From positions 1 to 9,476 of the forward strand of contig JBMFJL010000018.1 in NCBI GenBank assembly GCA_049973735.1: DNA of 9,476 bases. Reading direction: 5' to 3'. The notes under the pieces are model-generated. The model did no database searches and was not told where the DNA came from. It worked only from the letters and a program-made list of their open reading frames with translations. The DNA is from Nanopusillaceae archaeon. GTDB lineage: Archaea; Nanobdellota; Nanobdellia; Nanobdellales; Nanobdellaceae. Positions 1-8,941 of the stretch are shown here, one piece after another. The position numbers were made by a program, and so were the translations under genes. How positions within the stretch are numbered: position 1 is the first letter of the stretch; every line of letters starts with the position of its first letter.

Positions 1-1
1 C

Positions 2-370
2 AGAAAAAGCAATAATTTATACTTTATAAATAAAGATAAAAAGAAGTCTCCAATTCCAATAGAAAATACTAGAAATATTTTTATACTAAATAAGATTTCT
101 ATTACATATAATGCCATAAAATTATTATTAGATAGAAATATACTAATCCATATATTTTATGAAAATCAAAAGAAAGGAATATTTTATTATTTGGGATCTA
201 TCTTACCAAGACAGAAGAATCCTGCAGGATTTATTCATATAAAACAGGTAGAAGCATATTCAAATATAGAAAAAAGAACAAAAATATCATTAGAAATTAT
301 AGATGCTATTAGATATAATATGATTAAAGATGAAATAGAAAAAACTACAAGAATGGGAATAACATTATAA
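2..370 (+). CDS. cas1: Cas1 N-terminal fragment. The 5' end lies outside the window and the frame ends at a premature stop at 368-370. Together with 387-1037 it behaves as a split or pseudogenised cas1.
   Basis: The frame of position 2 is open from the window edge. Translation: ...NNLYFINKDKKKSPIPIENTRNIFILNKISITYNAIKLLLDRNILIHIFYENQKKGIFYYLGSILPRQKNPAGFIHIKQVEAYSNIEKRTKISLEIIDAIRYNMIKDEIEKTTRMGITL*. This matches the Cas1 N-terminal beta domain pattern (IPxxxixxIxIxxxxxITxxAxxLLxxxxIxIxF...G...G.L.P) followed by the start of the helical domain. The frame does not continue into 387-1037 unless 67 nt are removed. Confidence 0.75.
   Translation, partial: RKSNNLYFINKDKKKSPIPIENTRNIFILNKISITYNAIKLLLDRNILIHIFYENQKKGIFYYLGSILPRQKNPAGFIHIKQVEAYSNIEKRTKISLEIIDAIRYNMIKDEIEKTTRMGITL
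303..329. repeat. Copy 1 of a perfect 27-bp direct repeat, ATGCTATTAGATATAATATGATTAAAG
   Basis: Identical by direct reading to 370-396. It lies inside the cas1 N-terminal fragment. Confidence 0.95.
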
Positions 371-396
371 TGCTATTAGATATAATATGATTAAAG
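370..396. repeat. Copy 2 of the perfect 27-bp direct repeat, 40 nt downstream of copy 1
   Basis: Identical to 303-329. The intervening 330-369 (ATGAAATAGAAAAAACTACAAGAATGGGAATAACATTATA) carries the premature stop for cas1. Confidence 0.95.
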
Positions 397-1037
397 TCTT
401 AGAGAAATATAATGAAATTAAAGATTATGTTTATCGATTAAGAAGCTTCAATGTACATAAAAAGTTTGAAGAATTAAAAAATGAATATAAAGATCCAATA
501 AATACTGCTAGAGGTATAGAAAGTAATCTATGGAATATTTTTTATGAAGCAACAGATAGAATATTAAAAACATATAAAATAGAACAAAGAACTAGAAGAC
601 CTCCTAAAAATGAAGCAAATACAATAATTAGTTTTTCGAATCAACTTTTATATTCTATCACATTAACAGAAATATATAAAACACATTTAGATCCTACAAT
701 TTCATTTTTACATGAACCTTTTGAAAAAAGATTCTCTCTAGCATTAGATCTTTCAGAGCCATTTAAACCAATAATTACTTTTAGAATTTTAATATGGTTA
801 GTAAATCAGAATATGATAAAACCAGAGCATTTTGTAAAAGGATTAAATGGAATTTTATTAAATGAATATGGTAAAAAATTAGTTATAAAAGAATTTGATA
901 AAAGAATAAATGAAACTATAAAAATAAAAGGAAAAGGTAGAAAAAGTATAAGAACATTTATTAGAGCTCAAGCTTATAGTTTAGAAAAATACTTAATAGA
1001 AGATATAGAATTTAAAGCATTTAGATTAGTTTATTAA
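387..1037 (+). CDS. cas1: Cas1 C-terminal fragment (alpha-helical catalytic domain)
   Basis: 216-aa ORF with Cas1 hallmark motifs: NEANTIISFSNQLLY, DPTISFLHEP (catalytic His) and SLALDLSEPFKPII (acidic metal ligands). The first residues MIK are encoded inside the second copy of the 27-bp repeat, which also encodes ...AIRYNMIK in the upstream fragment. Confidence 0.85.
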   Translation: MIKVLEKYNEIKDYVYRLRSFNVHKKFEELKNEYKDPINTARGIESNLWNIFYEATDRILKTYKIEQRTRRPPKNEANTIISFSNQLLYSITLTEIYKTHLDPTISFLHEPFEKRFSLALDLSEPFKPIITFRILIWLVNQNMIKPEHFVKGLNGILLNEYGKKLVIKEFDKRINETIKIKGKGRKSIRTFIRAQAYSLEKYLIEDIEFKAFRLVY

Positions 1038-3472
1038 TATATATTATCATCATCATAATCTATAAATACTCCATATTTTTCTAATTTAGTTAAATTTACA
1101 AATCCATATTCTTTAAAATATTTATATTTATCCATATCTTCTGGTAGAGATTCCAATATTGGAAAACCAATCCTTTTTATTTCTGAACTATTAGAACTTT
1201 TCATAGCCCTTGCAACAATCCATAAGGGGATTGGCACAAGATACCTCTTAAGTTCTCCAAAGAATTCCCTCCACTCCCTATAGCCTGCATTTTGATCCTT
1301 CAATCTTTGATATTCATTTATTATAGAATTTATCTTCTCTTTCAAATCTTTATCATTTATAATATCTTCGGATAATAATGTCAATATTGATGATTCGCCC
1401 CTAAAATCTAGAAGATTCATAATATTTTTTTCGCTAAGAGTACTAGACAAAAACCATAGGAGATTACCTTCTCTGTCAATATTTTCAAAGGCATCTTCAT
1501 AGATATTTACAAAATCTTTATTCTCTTCTTCTATTAATTTTCTATAAAAGTCATAATTTAGGTTTTCATCTATTTTCTCTATTATTTTTCCTTCGATAAG
1601 ATCTCTAGATGATTGATTTATTTCTTTTAATACCTTAAGAGTTCTTTCTAATTCTTCATATTCATATGGATATTTTTTATCCTCTTTGATTTTTTCTAAT
1701 TCTGCTGGCATATAAACATATACTTTGCTTTTTTCTTTATTTCCATATCTATTTACCCTACCTGATCTTTGAATTATTGATGATAATGGCGCTAATTCCG
1801 TAAATAATATATCATAATCTATATCCAAAGAAACTTCTGCTATTTGTGTTGCAATAAATATACCACCTTTCTTTTCTATTTCTCTTATTCTATCTTCTTT
1901 TTCTTCTCTATCTTTAAAGGTATGCCTAGCATGTAACAATAAAATTTTATCATTAGGTATATTATAAGTCTCTTTCAATTTTTCATATAAAGCTACACTT
2001 TTTTCAACAGTATTTAATATAACCAAAACTTTCTTATTTTTTTCATATTCTTTAGCTATTTGATCTATATCTTCTAAAATATCCTTTTCTATCAATTCAA
2101 TTGATAATCTTACTCTATTGTAATATTTCTCTTCATAAAAACTTTTATCTAGTCTACCATAAATATCTTTTACCTCAAATTTTATATTTAATCCGTCAGT
2201 AATATATTCATATAATCCCTTTGGTAATGTAGCAGACATAAAAAGCAGTTTAAATTTGTATAGATCTGCAAAGTGTTGTAAAATCTTTTTTAATAAAAAT
2301 ATCATCCTGGGAGTAAGTAAATGTATTTCATCCAATATTATAATAGAATTTCTGAAGTTTACTCTCTTTAAGAAGTATCTGCCTGCTTGCAAGAATGATA
2401 AAATTATTTGATCTACTGTCGTAATATTTATTGGTGAATACATATTTTGTATATAAAATAAATTTGCAATTCTCTCATCAACTATATCATTTTCATTTTC
2501 TGAAAGTAAGTGAGCATCATATAAATAAAAATACATGGATACATTATTACAATATATATCTTCTAGTTTCTCATAAAAATCTTTTATCGATGTTATTGTT
2601 GGTAAGGTAAAAAATATCCTATTATAATTTTTATTTTTAGCGAATAACAGAGCAGTTGATGTTTTTCCCCATCCAGTAGGAGCCCTTAAAAATAAGTAAT
2701 TATAATTAGATAATAAACTTTGTTTATTATATCTTTCCAAATCGATATTATTGCCTATAATATTCTTAATATCATCGTCGATAATTTTTATACTTTTAAA
2801 ATAATTTTTATACTCATTAAATTTCCCTTGAGCTGATATAGAATCTGCAAATTTAAATAAACCATATAAATCGGCTAAATTTATCAAATATTTTTTACCT
2901 AACTTCTTTAATATAACCTTTAAAAGTTCTGTATAAGTAAGTTCAAGGCTATCATTCTTATATTTTCTCTTACCCAATATTTTAGCTATTTCGAATTTAT
3001 CTTCTGTTTGTAATAAGTCCTTAAAACGCATAATATCTAAGTCCAACAAATCGTTTAAGATTTCTCTAGAATTTTGAAAATAAACAGTAAAGTTTGAATG
3101 ATGTTTTAATACCAAGTAATATAAAAGAAATCTTTCTTCATAATTAAGCTTAGATAATTCTCTAATTATATCTTTATTTTTTTCACATAATAATCTTCTT
3201 AAACCTTCTAAGGACCATACAGCATGATTTCCTGGTTTGCTAGGTTTTTTACCTTCTTCTATCTCTTTAATATAATTTTGAAATTTCTTTTTACACTTAC
3301 CTATGTCATGATATTTTGCAACTAGATTTATTAAATCTAAAAGTCTATAATCTTCATTTATCAAATATTTTTCTATTATTTCTCTATCATTTATAATTCT
3401 TTGTATTTCCTCTATATGTTCTCTTAATAATTTACCTGGATGAGATCTGCCATTACAGATAATTGAACCCAT
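1034..3472 (-). CDS. cas3: Cas3 with an N-terminal HD nuclease fused to an SF2 DExH helicase
   Basis: 812 aa. HD-domain motifs: REHIEE, KYHDIGK, GNHAVWS, LKHHSNF. Helicase motifs: I APTGWGKT, II LDEIH, III MSATLP, VI QRSGRVNR. ATG start at 3472 overlaps the cas5 end by 20 nt. Confidence 0.9.
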   Translation of the reverse strand: MGSIICNGRSHPGKLLREHIEEIQRIINDREIIEKYLINEDYRLLDLINLVAKYHDIGKCKKKFQNYIKEIEEGKKPSKPGNHAVWSLEGLRRLLCEKNKDIIRELSKLNYEERFLLYYLVLKHHSNFTVYFQNSREILNDLLDLDIMRFKDLLQTEDKFEIAKILGKRKYKNDSLELTYTELLKVILKKLGKKYLINLADLYGLFKFADSISAQGKFNEYKNYFKSIKIIDDDIKNIIGNNIDLERYNKQSLLSNYNYLFLRAPTGWGKTSTALLFAKNKNYNRIFFTLPTITSIKDFYEKLEDIYCNNVSMYFYLYDAHLLSENENDIVDERIANLFYIQNMYSPINITTVDQIILSFLQAGRYFLKRVNFRNSIIILDEIHLLTPRMIFLLKKILQHFADLYKFKLLFMSATLPKGLYEYITDGLNIKFEVKDIYGRLDKSFYEEKYYNRVRLSIELIEKDILEDIDQIAKEYEKNKKVLVILNTVEKSVALYEKLKETYNIPNDKILLLHARHTFKDREEKEDRIREIEKKGGIFIATQIAEVSLDIDYDILFTELAPLSSIIQRSGRVNRYGNKEKSKVYVYMPAELEKIKEDKKYPYEYEELERTLKVLKEINQSSRDLIEGKIIEKIDENLNYDFYRKLIEEENKDFVNIYEDAFENIDREGNLLWFLSSTLSEKNIMNLLDFRGESSILTLLSEDIINDKDLKEKINSIINEYQRLKDQNAGYREWREFFGELKRYLVPIPLWIVARAMKSSNSSEIKRIGFPILESLPEDMDKYKYFKEYGFVNLTKLEKYGVFIDYDDDNIY

Positions 3473-4178
3473 TTATACTATATATTGGTATATCAAATAC
3501 GGTTTTTACGCTATTTTTTAATTCTACTTTTATTTCTTTATTTTTTTGTTCATTTTTATCTTCTTTTATATATTTTATAAAAGCAAAATATTTTAGAGCA
3601 TTATTATACTTTACTGGTAAAATTTGCATCTCGACACTTTTATCTATTTTATTGATTTCTTCAACTAGTATATATCCCCCTTTTATTATTTTCTTTTCTT
3701 CAACATTTATGAGATCTTTTAATATTTTAAAATCCTTTGCAAAATAATCATTTTGTCCTCCATATAGATATCTAGTAAGATTAATATTATACCATTTTCC
3801 ATAATTATCTTCTTCATATATATCTAAAATTTTTATTTTACTTAAAATTTTTTCTTCTAGCATCTTTTCATTACCTGCCACTATAATTAGATGTTCAACA
3901 TCATTATATAATTGATATTTAGTTACGCCTTTAATATTTTTTCCTATCTGTATATAGGTAGCATTTTCCTCTAATATATTTCCTTTAATCATTGCAGATC
4001 CATAATAAAAATCTTTAAGATTTTCAAAAGTATCTCTTCTATCATAACCACAGATATTCCCTATCATACCTAAAATCGTTGTAGGTAATGGAGCAGGATA
4101 AGATAGTTTAAATGCTTTAGTATAATGAACTTTAAATAAAGCTTCAAAAAATGAAAATTTGAAAACTAAAGCCTTCAT
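3453..4178 (-). CDS. cas5: Cas5 (type I, Cas5t/Cas5a-like)
   Basis: 241 aa. The N-terminus MKALVFKFSFFEALFKVHYTKAFKLSYPAPLPTTILGMIGNICG matches the Cas5 signature (F..p......tYP.P.pStixGmxxxixG). It sits between cas7 and cas3. ATGA start/stop overlap with cas7 at 4175-4178. Confidence 0.8.
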   Translation of the reverse strand: MKALVFKFSFFEALFKVHYTKAFKLSYPAPLPTTILGMIGNICGYDRRDTFENLKDFYYGSAMIKGNILEENATYIQIGKNIKGVTKYQLYNDVEHLIIVAGNEKMLEEKILSKIKILDIYEEDNYGKWYNINLTRYLYGGQNDYFAKDFKILKDLINVEEKKIIKGGYILVEEINKIDKSVEMQILPVKYNNALKYFAFIKYIKEDKNEQKNKEIKVELKNSVKTVFDIPIYSINGFNYL

Positions 4179-5158
4179 AATAAATGGTTAGTAATTTCTT
4201 CTATTGCCTTATTAACATCTACTTTTTCTATATCATCTATATTTTCCTTTAACCAATTATCATAGTCTATAACTAATACTCTACTCTCTAATTTTTTACA
4301 TATCTCAACTAATTTCTTTAATTTTTCTGTATCAACTATACCTTGTTCTTTATAATCTAGATACTGATAAACCGGTAATACCCCTTTATTATTTAAAACA
4401 ACTACTGCGATTTTATATTCAGGTACATTTAATGAATTTGTTCTTCTAGGTAATACATATTTTGGTGTTAATAATACTTCTAAGAATTTTTTAATCCTCT
4501 CTTCTCTTTTATTTCGATCTAATTCATAGTAATCTCTATTTTTTTGCAACTGATCTTTTTGATCTTTTTTTAGTTCATCCTCTTTAAATTTTCCTATATA
4601 ATCATATATCAATACATTCAATCTACCAATAAAATCTGCTACTTCTACTTCAAATGGCTGTGGATTATCATCTTTATTTCTTGGAAATCTTCCACCGAAT
4701 TCTGTAACTATAGGTGTATTTTTTAAAGCTTTAAAGTATGATATTGCTACAGGTGCTTGTCTTGACAAAGAACCACCTTCTCCTTTTCTGGAACCCTTTA
4801 TTGTTACCATATATCCAAATAAATCATTATCTATATACTTTATAGGATCACCGCTATCATTTAGATTTTTATTACCCATATTTTTCTTATCATTTTGTTC
4901 CTTATTATCATTTAAATTTTTAGTATCATTAACAAAAGGGTCTATTTCGAATCCTTCGTTTTTTAATGCCTCTCTTATCGCATACTTAATAGCTCTTGCA
5001 GATACAAATGGTAATACTTCTCCTTCTGATGAATAAAACTTCTTAATGGTTGTTCTATTTCCTATTGTTTCATCTGCATTTACATTTCCATATACTCTTG
5101 CTAAAATTGCTATTTGTACAGTTTTATTGGTTTTGTCCTTCTTTTCTGTCATCATCAT
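4175..5158 (-). CDS. cas7: Cas7 backbone subunit, Csa2/Cst2/DevR-type
   Basis: 327 aa. N-terminal ILARVYGNVNADETIGNRTT (the xLNAxGxxGN-like motif of Csa2/DevR Cas7), then SARAIKYAIREAL, then IDNDLFGYM (equivalent of the CDLFG motif). Three consecutive ATGs at 5150-5158. Overlaps the cas8 end by 35 nt. Confidence 0.85.
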   Translation of the reverse strand: MMMTEKKDKTNKTVQIAILARVYGNVNADETIGNRTTIKKFYSSEGEVLPFVSARAIKYAIREALKNEGFEIDPFVNDTKNLNDNKEQNDKKNMGNKNLNDSGDPIKYIDNDLFGYMVTIKGSRKGEGGSLSRQAPVAISYFKALKNTPIVTEFGGRFPRNKDDNPQPFEVEVADFIGRLNVLIYDYIGKFKEDELKKDQKDQLQKNRDYYELDRNKREERIKKFLEVLLTPKYVLPRRTNSLNVPEYKIAVVVLNNKGVLPVYQYLDYKEQGIVDTEKLKKLVEICKKLESRVLVIDYDNWLKENIDDIEKVDVNKAIEEITNHLL

Positions 5159-6455
5159 TTTCTCGAGATTTGTCTATGGATAAAGAATTTATTAGGCCGG
5201 ATAATATAGCTGATTTAACCATATAAAAGCTATCTCCCTTGTATTCTTCACTAAATAGTTTATTATTTATTGATAAATTAAAATCAATTTTTCCAGTTTC
5301 TTTTTTTATCTTTTCTACTACTTCATAGATAGCTGATGAAAGTGATGAAAAAAACCTTCCAGGCATCTCCTCTTTTCTTATCTCTTTTATTATTTCTTCT
5401 ATATACTCTCTTCCATTTTCTTTAGATGCATTTATTATATTTATTCCTATATATAGAGCCCAGTTGTATATTGCATCTACATTCATCATTAAATAGAAAT
5501 CTCCTGCTGAACGTATTGTTAAATACTTTTTACTTTTATCAATATATTCATAGAGTAAGAGTATCATTTTAGACAATATTTCGAAATTGATTTTATTTTT
5601 AAAGACTAAATAATACAAAAATTTATCTAACAAGCCGGCACTTTTATCTTTATAGTCTTTATCTGGTATATAGAAAGAAAATACAAATGATCCTACTGTA
5701 GAACGATTTAAATCAATATAATTAAATTTGCTACTAATCCTCGTGTCCTTTAATGCTATAGACAACTCTCTAATATAATATATTTTTATGAATCTTGTCA
5801 AATCGTTTAAATAATATTTTTTCTTTTTGTTTCTACTTAAGACTGTAAACACGGCATTTATAGGTTTATTTATATCAGAATTTAGTTCGTTTATATCTAA
5901 ACCCAATAATTCCAAAGTTATGTCTTCCTTTTTACTACTTATCAAAGTCATAATAAAATGATTTAACATTAAGAATAAAATTATATGCGAGTAATCAGAA
6001 ACGAAACCCTTATACAATTTATCAGATAATCCTAGATATTCTAAAGCTTTCTTCATATAATTTTCTCTAATTTTTTCGGATTCTAAATTTATATCTCTCA
6101 AAATAACTATACTTTTATAAATTTTTTCCAGTTCTTCATCCTTAATTTTTAATAGATAAACATAACCACCTAGTTTTATATATACCCCCGTAAAATCATC
6201 TATTAATTCTCTTATTTCATCTTCGGATAAAAAAATGTCCTTTTTCTTTAAGAAAAAGTTTTTACCTTCTTTATATGAAGTTGTAGTTGGTAATATAGTT
6301 GATCTAACACCTTCTGACTTTGACTTTTCTATTTCAGATTTTAATATCTCTAACAATTCTGAAGTATCCTTAGCATACTTAGCAGAATTTAGATGACCAA
6401 ATAAAACTTTTAGAAAATCTTTATAATATGGATGATTTAATTTCGATAAATCCAT
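5124..6455 (-). CDS. cas8: Cas8-like large subunit (Cas8a/Cas8b class), assigned mainly by position
   Basis: 443-aa first gene of the cas8-cas7-cas5-cas3 operon. I recognise no conserved motif, which is expected because Cas8 families are very divergent. Size and position fit a type I-A/I-B large subunit. Confidence 0.6.
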   Translation of the reverse strand: MDLSKLNHPYYKDFLKVLFGHLNSAKYAKDTSELLEILKSEIEKSKSEGVRSTILPTTTSYKEGKNFFLKKKDIFLSEDEIRELIDDFTGVYIKLGGYVYLLKIKDEELEKIYKSIVILRDINLESEKIRENYMKKALEYLGLSDKLYKGFVSDYSHIILFLMLNHFIMTLISSKKEDITLELLGLDINELNSDINKPINAVFTVLSRNKKKKYYLNDLTRFIKIYYIRELSIALKDTRISSKFNYIDLNRSTVGSFVFSFYIPDKDYKDKSAGLLDKFLYYLVFKNKINFEILSKMILLLYEYIDKSKKYLTIRSAGDFYLMMNVDAIYNWALYIGINIINASKENGREYIEEIIKEIRKEEMPGRFFSSLSSAIYEVVEKIKKETGKIDFNLSINNKLFSEEYKGDSFYMVKSAILSGLINSLSIDKSRENDDDRKEGQNQ

Positions 6456-6592: not shown

Positions 6593-6946
6593 ATGGAAAG
6601 CCTTGAAGAAACTTGGAAAAAATACCTCAATTCTGCAGACAAACTATATAATGAAGGAGATTATGGAAGTAGTGCTGTATTATATATAAAAGCCATTTTC
6701 TTAATAATTGATAATTTCTTGTATTCAAAATTTAATTTAGAAGTTAAAGATCACAAAGAGAGAGAACTATATTTAATATCTAAAAAAGATATGGATCCTA
6801 CATGTAAAAGAATATTAGAAATATACAATATTGTATATAAATCCCATAGAGAAACATATAAAAGAGAATTAAATCAAAGCGAAGTTATGATAATAAAATC
6901 TCTTGCATATGAACTTAAAAAACTTATTAAACTATCTAAAAAGTAA
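6593..6946 (+). CDS. Small all-helical HEPN-like protein, partner of the downstream nucleotidyltransferase
   Basis: 117 aa. The N-terminal EETWKKYLNSADKLYNEGDYGSSAVLYIKAIFLIIDNFLY resembles the HEPN (PF05168-type) opening helices (wl..A...l..a....g.y..a....y.A). A C-terminal SHRETYKRELNQSEV block follows. I find no canonical Rx4-6H RNase motif. Overlaps the NTase gene by 38 nt. Confidence 0.5.
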   Translation: MESLEETWKKYLNSADKLYNEGDYGSSAVLYIKAIFLIIDNFLYSKFNLEVKDHKERELYLISKKDMDPTCKRILEIYNIVYKSHRETYKRELNQSEVMIIKSLAYELKKLIKLSKK

Positions 6947-7508
6947 TATAAATGATAAAGTATTTGATATAATAATTTTTGGTTCTATTACTCGAGGAAA
7001 AGAAAATCCGAACGACATAGATATATTAATAATATTTAAGAAACTTGATATAAACTTAATAAATACCTTATCTTCTAATAAAGATTACAATTTTCATATT
7101 CAATATATGACCATTTATGATTTATATTCATTAAGTAGCTTATTACCTGAAATCTTGGCTGAAGGCATATCTGTAAAATATGGAAAACCTCTTAGAGAAA
7201 TACTAAATTTTAAAGCATATAAATTATATGAAATAAAGGATGTTATTCTATTAAAAGATTCAAATGCTAGTAAAACTTCATTTTATTATTTTTTATTCGG
7301 AATAAAGCATAGAAATAAAATTGGATTGATAAAAGAACTAAATGGAGAAGTAATAAGAAGAAACCCCTATATTATAAAGATACCAATAGAAAATTCTGAA
7401 ACATTCAAAAAAAGATTAGAGATATTTAGCAAGTTAAAAAGAATAAAGATAAAATTAGAAGAAAAAACAATTATTGAAGGAAGAAATATCTACTATGAAT
7501 ATCAATAA
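6909..7508 (+). CDS. Minimal (Pol-beta superfamily, MNT-type) nucleotidyltransferase with a roughly 100-aa C-terminal extension
   Basis: FDIIIFGSITRGKENPNDIDILIIF is the GS-x(n)-DxD NTase signature. ILAEGISVKYGKP matches the usual end of the MNT core. The ORF-track start at 6903 is TTG, so I prefer the ATG at 6909. The 3' end overlaps cas4. Confidence 0.8.
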   Translation: MNLKNLLNYLKSNINDKVFDIIIFGSITRGKENPNDIDILIIFKKLDINLINTLSSNKDYNFHIQYMTIYDLYSLSSLLPEILAEGISVKYGKPLREILNFKAYKLYEIKDVILLKDSNASKTSFYYFLFGIKHRNKIGLIKELNGEVIRRNPYIIKIPIENSETFKKRLEIFSKLKRIKIKLEEKTIIEGRNIYYEYQ

Positions 7509-8007
7509 TATACAAGGGTTAAAGATATTGTATTATTTTATATGCAAAAGGAGATTGTGGTTTCTATCTAGAAAAATTAATATGGAACATGAATCTGAAT
7601 TAGTTGCAATAGGTAAATATATTGAACTATTCTATAAAGAAGAACATAAGTATGAGAAAAAAGTAATAATAAATGATATTTCTCCTGATGTATTAAAAAG
7701 AACGAAAGAATTTGTAATAGTATATGAAATTAAGAAATCTTCAAAATTAGAAGAAGCAGCAATATGGCAATTAAAATATTACTTATACTATTTACAAAAT
7801 CTAGGAATTAAGGCAAAAGGAAAGTTGATAATTCCAGAAGAGAATAAAGCAGAATATATAGAGATATCTGAAGAAGATATTAAGAAAATTAAAGAGGTCA
7901 TCAAAGATATAAAAAATATTATAAACTTAGATAAACCACCTAAACAAATTAAAAAACCATATTGCGAAACTTGTTCATACAAAATGATGTGTTGGAATAC
8001 ATACTAA
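7495..8007 (+). CDS. cas4: Cas4 RecB-like nuclease with a 4-Cys Fe-S cluster
   Basis: N-terminal YYFICKRRLWFL (the CxRxxW motif), ISPDV...VYEIKKS (D...ExK nuclease motifs), WQLKYYLYYL (QxxxY), C-terminal CETCSYKMMC (CxxCx5C). The ORF-track start at 7474 is TTG. The ATG at 7495 gives a typical Cas4 N-terminus, with a purine-rich AAGGAAG about 13 nt upstream. Confidence 0.88.
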   Translation: MNINNIQGLKILYYFICKRRLWFLSRKINMEHESELVAIGKYIELFYKEEHKYEKKVIINDISPDVLKRTKEFVIVYEIKKSSKLEEAAIWQLKYYLYYLQNLGIKAKGKLIIPEENKAEYIEISEEDIKKIKEVIKDIKNIINLDKPPKQIKKPYCETCSYKMMCWNTY

Positions 8008-8044: not shown

Positions 8045-8941
8045 ATGCGATTATTAATAAAGTTTGTTTCTTTACAGAATGCTAAGAGAGATGTTATAAA
8101 TAATTATGTTATCCAAGGATTTATATATAATAAACTTATTGGAACAGAATTTGAAAATATTCATGAAAATAAAGGGCCAAAATTCTTTAATTTCTCAAAT
8201 ATTTTTCCTGTAAAAGATTTTGAAATAGATAAAGAATATAGGTTAATAATATCTTCTCTAAATAAAAAATTAATTGAAGCTCTTTATAGAAAATTAAAAG
8301 AGGATAGAGAAATAAAGTTAGGTATTTTAGAATTTAAAATCAAAAGAATAAGAAAATTTGATTTAAAGTTAAAATTTCCTTGGGTAACTGCAACCCCAAT
8401 TATATTAAGAAAACATAAAGAGGTATATTTATATAATGGAAATAATGTATTAAAGATTAAATTAAAAAATCTTAATATTTTAAAAGAATTAGGATTTAAA
8501 AAGAAAAAAGAAAAAATAAATATAAAAAATCCACAGGAAATTTCGATAAAAGATTTAAAATATTTAGATAAAAGTTATAAAATAGTGAAAATAAAAGACA
8601 TTTATTATGATTTAGAGTCTAAAGATAATATATGGGATTTTCTGGATGATTTGAAATTAAACGGTTTGTTGAAATATAATTTATATACAGGTTATGAATT
8701 TAATCTAGAAGATTTACTATTTGAAGAAATACAATTTAGAAGATCTTTACCACTTAAGGTAAGATTAAAGAATAGAGGAGATATCATATTCGTAGGAAAT
8801 TTATTCAAAAAATTAAATATTTTTAGAAAATTAGATTCTTCAGAAAGAAAATTCTATAAATTTTTAATGGATGTTGGTTTAGGATCTTTAAATTCTTTGG
8901 GTTTTGGGTTTATAAATCCAGTAAAAGATAAAAATCTATAA
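8045..8941 (+). CDS. cas6: Cas6 crRNA-processing endoribonuclease
   Basis: 298 aa. N-terminal MRLLIKF...YVIQGFIYNKL, then IHENKGPKFFNFSNIFP (the His...F.FS.l motif), then the C-terminal glycine-rich loop GLGSLNSLGFGFINPV. It is longer than typical Cas6 because of Lys-rich central segments. Confidence 0.85.
   Translation: MRLLIKFVSLQNAKRDVINNYVIQGFIYNKLIGTEFENIHENKGPKFFNFSNIFPVKDFEIDKEYRLIISSLNKKLIEALYRKLKEDREIKLGILEFKIKRIRKFDLKLKFPWVTATPIILRKHKEVYLYNGNNVLKIKLKNLNILKELGFKKKKEKINIKNPQEISIKDLKYLDKSYKIVKIKDIYYDLESKDNIWDFLDDLKLNGLLKYNLYTGYEFNLEDLLFEEIQFRRSLPLKVRLKNRGDIIFVGNLFKKLNIFRKLDSSERKFYKFLMDVGLGSLNSLGFGFINPVKDKNL

Follow-up and report, generated by a model that had tools for sequence, protein, structure and literature searches.

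How did a gene for Cas1, an adaptation enzyme of CRISPR systems (named for short palindromic repeats that are clustered and regularly interspaced), come to be interrupted by something with the size and shape of almost one CRISPR repeat-spacer unit? The question is raised by the cas1 gene at the left end of a 9,476-nt contig from a metagenome-assembled genome (MAG) of a member of the Nanopusillaceae (Nanoarchaeota). The complete contig (GC 24%) was analysed and is what is meant here by the window. The answer that we favour, as a probable but not a secure one, is that the organism's own Cas1-Cas2 made a natural off-target, full-site spacer integration into its own cas1 and thereby inactivated it. 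An earlier, sequence-only reading of this DNA had proposed as much, along with several alternatives, and the analysis that follows weighs the proposal against them.

The interrupted cas1 gene

The 5' part of cas1, up to the duplicated target, occupies positions 2-302 of the forward (+) strand. The left end of the contig cuts off its first ~13 codons (window 1-40), and it is identified as type I-B cas1 by its frame and translation, by a match to the Cas1b model TIGR03641 that starts at profile position 13, and by alignment with orthologues. Beyond it, a 27-bp segment is present twice, and here the sequence-only reading is reproduced in its coordinates, its identities and its frames: the sequence ATGCTATTAGATATAATATGATTAAAG stands at 303-329 and again at 370-396 (27/27 identical), with 40 nt (330-369) between the copies. 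The identity ends sharply, since on the left G302 corresponds to A369 and on the right A330 to T397. Through the first copy the upstream frame of Cas1 reads ...EIIDAIRYNMIK, and it continues as DEIEKTTRMGITL through the insert (330-369, + strand; 13 out-of-context codons) to a TAA stop at 368-370, made up of T368 and A369 of the insert and A370 of the second copy. That copy (370-396, +; 27 nt) lies in the +1 frame relative to the first and holds the ATG at 387 with which the residual open reading frame (ORF), 387-1037, begins. The ORF, which is NCBI protein MGC9079463.1, carries the intact 3' part of cas1 (397-1037, +), encoding the catalytic alpha-helical domain, as its conserved residues and its matches to Cas1 structures in the PDB indicate.

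Removal of 67 nt joins ...ATTATAGATGCTATTAGATATAATATGATTAAAG directly to TCTTAGAG and leaves an open frame of 322 codons. The restored protein matches TIGR03641 from profile position 13 to position 322, out of 324 (E 1e-100; 337 bits, with a cut-off of 304), and has the conserved C-terminal motif residues FLHE, LALD and EPFKP. No gap is needed at the junction ...DAIRYNMIKVLEKY... to align it with 18 orthologues, so that the anticipated fusion of the two frames into a normal-length Cas1 with intact motifs is borne out by profile and alignment alike. None of the 18 orthologues is split at the insertion point, and no Cas1 more than 74% identical to this one is found in a collection of 5.8 billion protein clusters. 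Because the additional 67 nt shift the frame and Cas1 ends after 13 foreign codons, the adaptation enzyme is very probably inactivated. The interruption is probably also recent and the result of a single event, since the two 27-mer copies do not differ and neither the remainder of cas1 nor any other cas gene is damaged.

Split genes and unusual ways of processing RNA are a known trait of the Nanoarchaeota (PMC3491384). Cas1 might be rescued at the level of RNA or protein, through a bulge-helix-bulge (BHB) intron in the mRNA, through translational bypass or a +1 frameshift, or through assembly of the fragments of a split gene. There are 28 registers in which 67 nt can be excised, and each gives the exact Cas1 frame; the downstream fragment has its own ATG and is annotated as a protein, and both fragments contain ...MIK. 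To that extent the locus resembles the BHB introns of archaea and the split genes of this fragmented-gene lineage, in which an interrupted gene also has its frame restored when a segment is removed. The resemblance does not extend to the particulars, and we regard rescue as extremely improbable. For bulge starts at 290-344 and an intron length of 67 there is no hBHBh' motif (a 4-bp helix between two 3-nt bulges, with flanking helices), central helices arising only from AT palindromes and flanking helices amounting to at most 1 bp; the region does not fold stably (-11.6 kcal/mol, z 0.02); and an Rfam search of the window matched no RNA family. Inside copy 1 no take-off codon is followed by a stop, nor does TTA-TAA offer a slippery site for a +1 shift. 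The two fragments are adjacent and overlapping, unlike the dispersed fragments of split genes, and their orthologues are uninterrupted. The split, finally, falls inside the conserved ...LEIIDAIRYNMIKVLEKY... near what we take, by the general layout of Cas1 structures, to be the start of the C-terminal part, and not in a domain linker.

A perfect 27-nt repeat at this spacing cannot be ascribed to chance: ~1e-7 occurrences are expected from base composition (24% GC, 9.5 kb). No repeats other than the two 27-mer copies are found in the window, and when ~121 kb of nanoarchaeal sequence, arrays excluded, are searched for perfect direct repeats (18 nt or longer, no more than 300 nt apart), this is the sole one. 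In the 1.24 Mb surrounding 79 Cas1b-related genes, repeats of 20 nt or longer that occur as an isolated pair number seven; most of these are array fragments at contig ends, and only ~3 are non-CRISPR examples.

Two close direct copies that break a frame, in a gene that is restored by the loss of one unit, are also what slipped-strand tandem duplication produces. This brings up the rival explanation to which we give most attention below, a CRISPR-independent accident of replication or repair, which would be either an imperfect tandem duplication of 67-69 nt or a template switch at microhomology, the CRISPR-like sizes being coincidental. In the first of these forms it meets a difficulty at once. 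Slippage predicts two identical 67-nt units, but only 27 of the 67 positions are exactly duplicated, and the other 40 are at most weakly similar, with ~13 differences as well as indels of 2 nt. That all ~13 differences should fall within 40 of 67 positions has a probability of ~5e-4, and simple slippage, one of the alternatives originally listed and unlikely even with later decay, does not survive the comparison.

Nor does another of them, the tiny mobile insertion. An insert between direct duplications of its target is the general form of a transposon, miniature inverted-repeat transposable element (MITE), insertion sequence (IS) or casposon insertion. In this instance the ends of the insert (ATGAAAT... 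and ...CATTATA) are not inverted repeats, its 40 nt are too few for a mobile element, and a duplication of 27 bp is beyond the 2-15 bp of target site duplications (TSDs). TSDs of 9-12 bp are recorded for Mutator/MuDR transposons and of 14-15 bp for casposons (as cited in PMC4872114); with known TSDs there reaching at most 9-15 bp, a 27-bp duplication around a 40-bp insert fits Cas1-Cas2 and no cited transposon or casposon footprint.

Repeat and spacer geometry in related archaea

The dimensions of the structure find their counterpart in the CRISPR arrays of the same lineage. In a scan of species-representative genomes, the three closest loci are those of Nanobdella aerobiophila, Nanoarchaeum equitans and Nanoclepta minutus, whose Cas1 proteins are, respectively, 74%, 70% and 66% identical to that of the window. 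In all three an array of 13-44 repeats ends 608-638 nt upstream of the cas1 match, and in all three the repeat is exactly 28 nt long, reading GTTT...ATTAGAAATATTGAAAG in the sense of the CRISPR RNA (crRNA) and ending in ATTGAAAG. For N. equitans, the 28-bp repeat and the ATTGAAAG 5' tag have been demonstrated experimentally (PMC3491384). The 80 spacers of these relatives have a median and a mode of 40 nt (41% are exactly 40 nt long and 60% are 39-41 nt long). The duplication and insert in cas1 (27 + 40 = 67) are thus to be set beside a lineage unit of 28 + 40 = 68, with the insert exactly at the modal spacer length. The agreement is specific to the lineage, since the other type I-B (Cas1b-associated) loci that were fetched have repeats of 28-32 nt and spacers of 33-39 nt, summarised as 30 and 35-37 nt.

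It is because the insertion has the size and shape of almost one CRISPR unit of this lineage that we think it was most likely made by the Cas1 enzyme itself. The MAG's own repeat would presumably have 28 nt, as in its relatives, and this length is not clearly different from 27, which is how the comparison with host repeats proposed in the sequence-only reading comes out. The relatives have their native array and leader ~600 nt upstream of cas1, and the insertion would therefore lie ~1 kb from the normal site of integration.

Two features of the relatives' arrays (L002 7594-9393; L005 8524-9390) may be recorded here. The copy farthest from cas1 in the Nanobdella array is degenerate (ATTTAAATATTTC...), which is consistent with a leader on the cas1 side. 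One interval of double length occurs in the array of Nanobdella and one in that of N. equitans (157 and 94 nt, start to start), suggesting a mutated or missed repeat.

The target and a proposed mechanism

If Cas1-Cas2 was the agent, the segment that was attacked might be expected to look like a repeat, and it does. For comparison with the native repeats the target was set as G302-G329, taking 329 as the right boundary and 28 as the native repeat length; the first pseudo-repeat (302-329, +) is thus the duplicated 303-329 extended by G302 to a 28-mer with the native-repeat-like borders G...AAAG in crRNA sense. Aligned without gaps to the N. equitans repeat in that sense, it is identical at 17 of 28 positions, which places it in the top 0.6% of the 18,898 windows compared (both strands). 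The G...AAAG borders occur in only 30 of these, and the borders together with that level of identity in three. Directly to the left of the target is the hexamer ATTATA (296-301, +), which might be called the end of a 'pseudo-leader' and which also closes the insert, at 364-369. The flank that it forms, ...ATTATA/GATGC, can be compared with the leader/repeat junction of Nanobdella, ...CTTATA/GTTTA; this likeness is suggestive only.

The course of events that we envisage is the following. A prespacer of ~40 bp would have been loaded onto Cas1-Cas2, and its two 3'-OH ends would have attacked cas1, each on a different strand. On the left the attack would fall between G302 and A303 and on the right, 27 bp further on, after G329 (in the original gene); the segment between has repeat-like borders and is in part identical to the native 28-nt repeat. 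By gap filling, the 27-nt target would then have been copied to both sides of the insert. The product would be a pseudo-repeat, a 40-nt putative ectopic spacer and a second pseudo-repeat, with a gain of 67 nt, a frameshift and a stop after 13 foreign codons.

Pyrococcus furiosus Cas1-Cas2 performs full-site integration at non-CRISPR sites, with points of attack one repeat length apart and a preference for the nucleotides that border the native repeat (PMC6698737). Off-target spacer integration in Escherichia coli in vivo is reported by Nivala, Shipman & Church (2018, Nat Microbiol 3:310), as cited in PMC6698737, PMC7054753 and PMC9456107. The cas1 insertion shares with the E. coli and P. furiosus cases a spacer-sized insert, a direct duplication of about repeat length, a non-CRISPR site, borders like those of the repeat with partial repeat identity, and the resulting 'seed' of two repeats and one spacer. 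It differs from them in being natural, in an uncultured nanoarchaeon and without overexpression, in lying inside cas1 and in having a duplication 1 nt below the repeat length of the relatives. (Nivala and colleagues reportedly also described natural genomic examples of off-target integration.)

With canonical type I-B adaptation, as in Haloarcula hispanica (PMC4872114) and N. equitans (PMC3491384), the structure has in common its unit size (27 + 40, as against 28 + 40), the presence of cas1 and cas4, and the sequence ...AAAG directly preceding the insert, as ATTGAAAG precedes spacers. Unlike a canonical locus, it has neither leader nor array, the target is coding sequence with 17/28 repeat identity, and the repeat core ATTAGAAATATTGAAAG is absent in register. 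With two copies only, placed inside an ORF, this is not a functional CRISPR array.

The case against integration

Several observations weigh against integration. The duplication measures 27 nt where the repeat of all three relatives measures 28 (that of the MAG itself may differ); duplication of the 28-mer G302-G329 would require G at 369, where there is A. The shortfall of one base would seem tolerable, to judge from the type I-B system of H. hispanica, in which shifted internal anchor motifs move the size of the duplication by 1-3 bp, to 29 or to 31-33 bp (PMC4872114). When the comparison is made with gaps and for the 27-mer alone, similarity to the repeat is in the top 5% only. No cas2 and no CRISPR array are present on the 9,476-nt contig. 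The evidence comes from one assembled contig and, since the window is that entire contig, the duplication lies only ~300 nt from an end.

As to the insert, searches of IMG/VR, JGI metagenomes and GenBank phages, and of the window and the related loci, gave no source for it beyond chance. IMG/VR and the JGI metagenomes were queried with the exact 40-mer, with a 27-base wobble pattern (for both open frames), with an 18-base wobble pattern and with two exact 20-mers, and the GenBank phages were searched by blastn. Archaeal spacers commonly have no database match, which makes a missing protospacer a weak negative. One viral sequence, IMG/VR UViG 3300005346_000070 (L112 8088-8107; ~30-36% GC), does match the centre of the 40-mer (AAAACTACAAGAATGGGAAT, 20 nt exact), but its flanks differ and the match is put down to chance. 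The best match in the Nanobdella locus, to the 3' end of cas3 (score 21), is equalled by 8% of shuffles and was discarded as a source.

The composition of the insert is also out of the ordinary. Its GC content is 22.5% and its A content 57.5%, a figure that exceeds those of 159 among 160 strands of native spacers (which show no end-nucleotide preference with which its ends might be compared). More troubling is a weak resemblance, near register, between the 40-mer and the 40 nt upstream of copy 1 (259-302), both of which are ~58% A. They share ATAGAAAAAA at an offset of 69, ...ACAA..., and the ATTATA that abuts both copies of the 27-mer; the similar left flanks, which had been thought to blur the boundaries of the event, are therefore real. 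The probability of so good a match is 0.0075-0.089 against coding-sense 40-mers and 0.0095-0.11 against composition-matched shuffles. The resemblance is marginally significant by these tests and would be a signal that integration does not predict; it is mainly on its account that our confidence in integration is not higher.

What, then, might the resemblance mean? A straightforward copy of adjacent upstream cas1 was considered and rejected: uncorrected, this segment topped 18,674 other positions in the window, but after control for A content p is 0.01-0.09. The suggestion that the 40-mer might be a copy of nearby host sequence thus comes down to a weak and largely compositional likeness, and the window contains no better copy elsewhere. 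A diverged cas1 allele as the source was rejected too. Read in frame, the 40-mer breaks the invariant Cas1 residues R92 and I95 and the near-invariant L97 and E98. Its register is also off by 2 nt, and for these reasons it is not the allele of another strain; it is no closer to the corresponding segment of any orthologue than to the window's own.

These are the data on which the accident of replication or repair has to be judged in its second form, a template switch in which a diverged or error-ridden upstream cas1 segment would have been copied, with re-annealing at the 27-mer. In its favour, the best match of the 40-mer in the window is to the 44 nt directly left of copy 1, with the shared motifs already noted; p is ~0.01-0.02 in three of four scoring schemes after composition is controlled for; and the A-richness of the 40-mer is that of local coding-sense DNA and unlike that of typical spacers. 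On the other side, the fourth scoring scheme gives a non-significant value (p 0.09-0.11), a shuffled 40-mer matches equally well in a modest search, and an exact donor template is absent from the 9.5-kb contig. The damaged residues and the lost register do not suit a template that was a functional allele. The accident also leaves without explanation the match to the lineage's 28/40 unit and the repeat-like borders of the target. Taken in both its forms, we consider it unlikely, though deserving of serious attention.

The position of the feature near the end of a single contig bears on a different doubt, that it is an artefact of assembly or sequencing (a chimera of strain variants or a local mis-assembly) and that no cell has such a cas1. 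The protein collection holds no second assembly of the population, and the cluster of ORF 387-1037 is a singleton with an entry from NCBI only; exact look-ups of two window proteins likewise indicate that the contig's other proteins have no record elsewhere. Against this, the structure of 94 nt is shorter than one short read, so that both junctions would normally need real reads, and a graph join through a shared k-mer would be expected to leave one copy of the shared segment, not two. The similarity profiles of the N- and C-terminal parts of Cas1 are congruent over the 18 orthologues (Spearman 0.61), with equal GC. An artefact, moreover, has no reason to mimic the 28/40 geometry of the lineage. 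That earlier misgiving is accordingly reduced by the want of any chimera signal but retains what force a single contig and a nearby end give it; we regard an artefact as quite improbable.

Ectopic integration by Cas1-Cas2 emerges from these comparisons partly supported: it withstands the two refuting comparisons, with host repeats and with nearby sequence, that the sequence-only reading had set for it, and it has gained support specific to the lineage. The geometry of the relatives' arrays speaks for the footprint in cas1, as does the finding that the 40-mer is not a nearby copy; the missing base in the duplication and the missing protospacer speak against it.

The rest of the locus

The contig carries a cas locus in the order cas1, a convergent cas3-cas5-cas7-cas8b group, a small ORF with a nucleotidyltransferase gene, cas4 and cas6. 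On the reverse (-) strand, convergent with cas1, are cas3, comprising HD and helicase parts (1034-3472; TIGR01587, TIGR01596 and Pfam), and three effector genes: cas5 (3453-4178; profile match to Cas5/Cas5b), cas7 (4175-5158; profile match to Cas7/Cst2/DevR) and cas8b (5124-6455; PADLOC Cas8b, E 3.7e-55). On the + strand are cas4 (7474-8007; TIGR00372, PF01930), the adaptation partner of cas1, and cas6 (8045-8941; TIGR01877, E 8e-24). The presence of cas8b, cas7, cas5, cas3, cas6 and cas4 together with a cas1 of the Cas1b type, by NCBIfam, Pfam and PADLOC, makes this a type I-B system which, as far as its gene content goes, is intact apart from cas1. Its adaptation module is represented on the contig by cas4 and the broken cas1, and the three relatives carry arrays. 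In N. equitans cas2 adjoins cas1 (PMC3491384). As the relatives' array ends ~600 nt upstream of cas1, it was probably close to the leader or array that the assembly broke.

Some other genes of the contig deserve mention. Between cas8b and cas4 (6593-7508, +) an ORF of 117 aa, for which no family match was found, runs into the beginning of a nucleotidyltransferase gene of 201 aa (Pfam Polbeta/NTP_transf_2, with a weak MntA-like match and the PADLOC candidate families PDC-S09 and PDC-M63A). The layout of the two resembles that of a toxin-antitoxin or accessory pair. An ORF of 161 aa by the right end of the contig (8983-9468, -) has no match in NCBIfam, Pfam or PADLOC. The cas6 gene of the present locus is clear, whereas Cas6 is not easily identified in N. 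equitans (PMC3491384).

Implications

Off-target integration as a mechanism is already known; a natural archaeal instance of it, and above all the self-inactivation of cas1, would be new. The phenomenon has been shown in E. coli, with overproduced Cas1-Cas2, and in vitro for archaeal proteins. Few clean footprints of it are known from nature, and what it costs there has mostly been argued from theory.

One may go further and imagine that the insertion is more than damage: a heritable OFF state of adaptation, open to reversal by excision between the 27-nt repeats, and so a self-inflicted switch, with the unit serving also as the seed of a new CRISPR locus and the overlapping Cas1 fragments possibly retaining activity. 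We consider this elaboration speculative and very improbable.

The sequence in cas1 does offer a testable target with which to examine how specifically the type I-B Cas1-Cas2 of nanoarchaea integrates, and a close relative, Nanobdella aerobiophila, is cultivated. If integration into cas1 is indeed what happened in this genome-reduced symbiotic archaeon, the locus would be a snapshot of the first step in the proposed birth of a 'spontaneous CRISPR locus'. It would also provide a direct example of the hazard that the adaptation machinery poses to the genome, and a concrete route by which adaptation modules may be lost while the genes of interference are kept intact.

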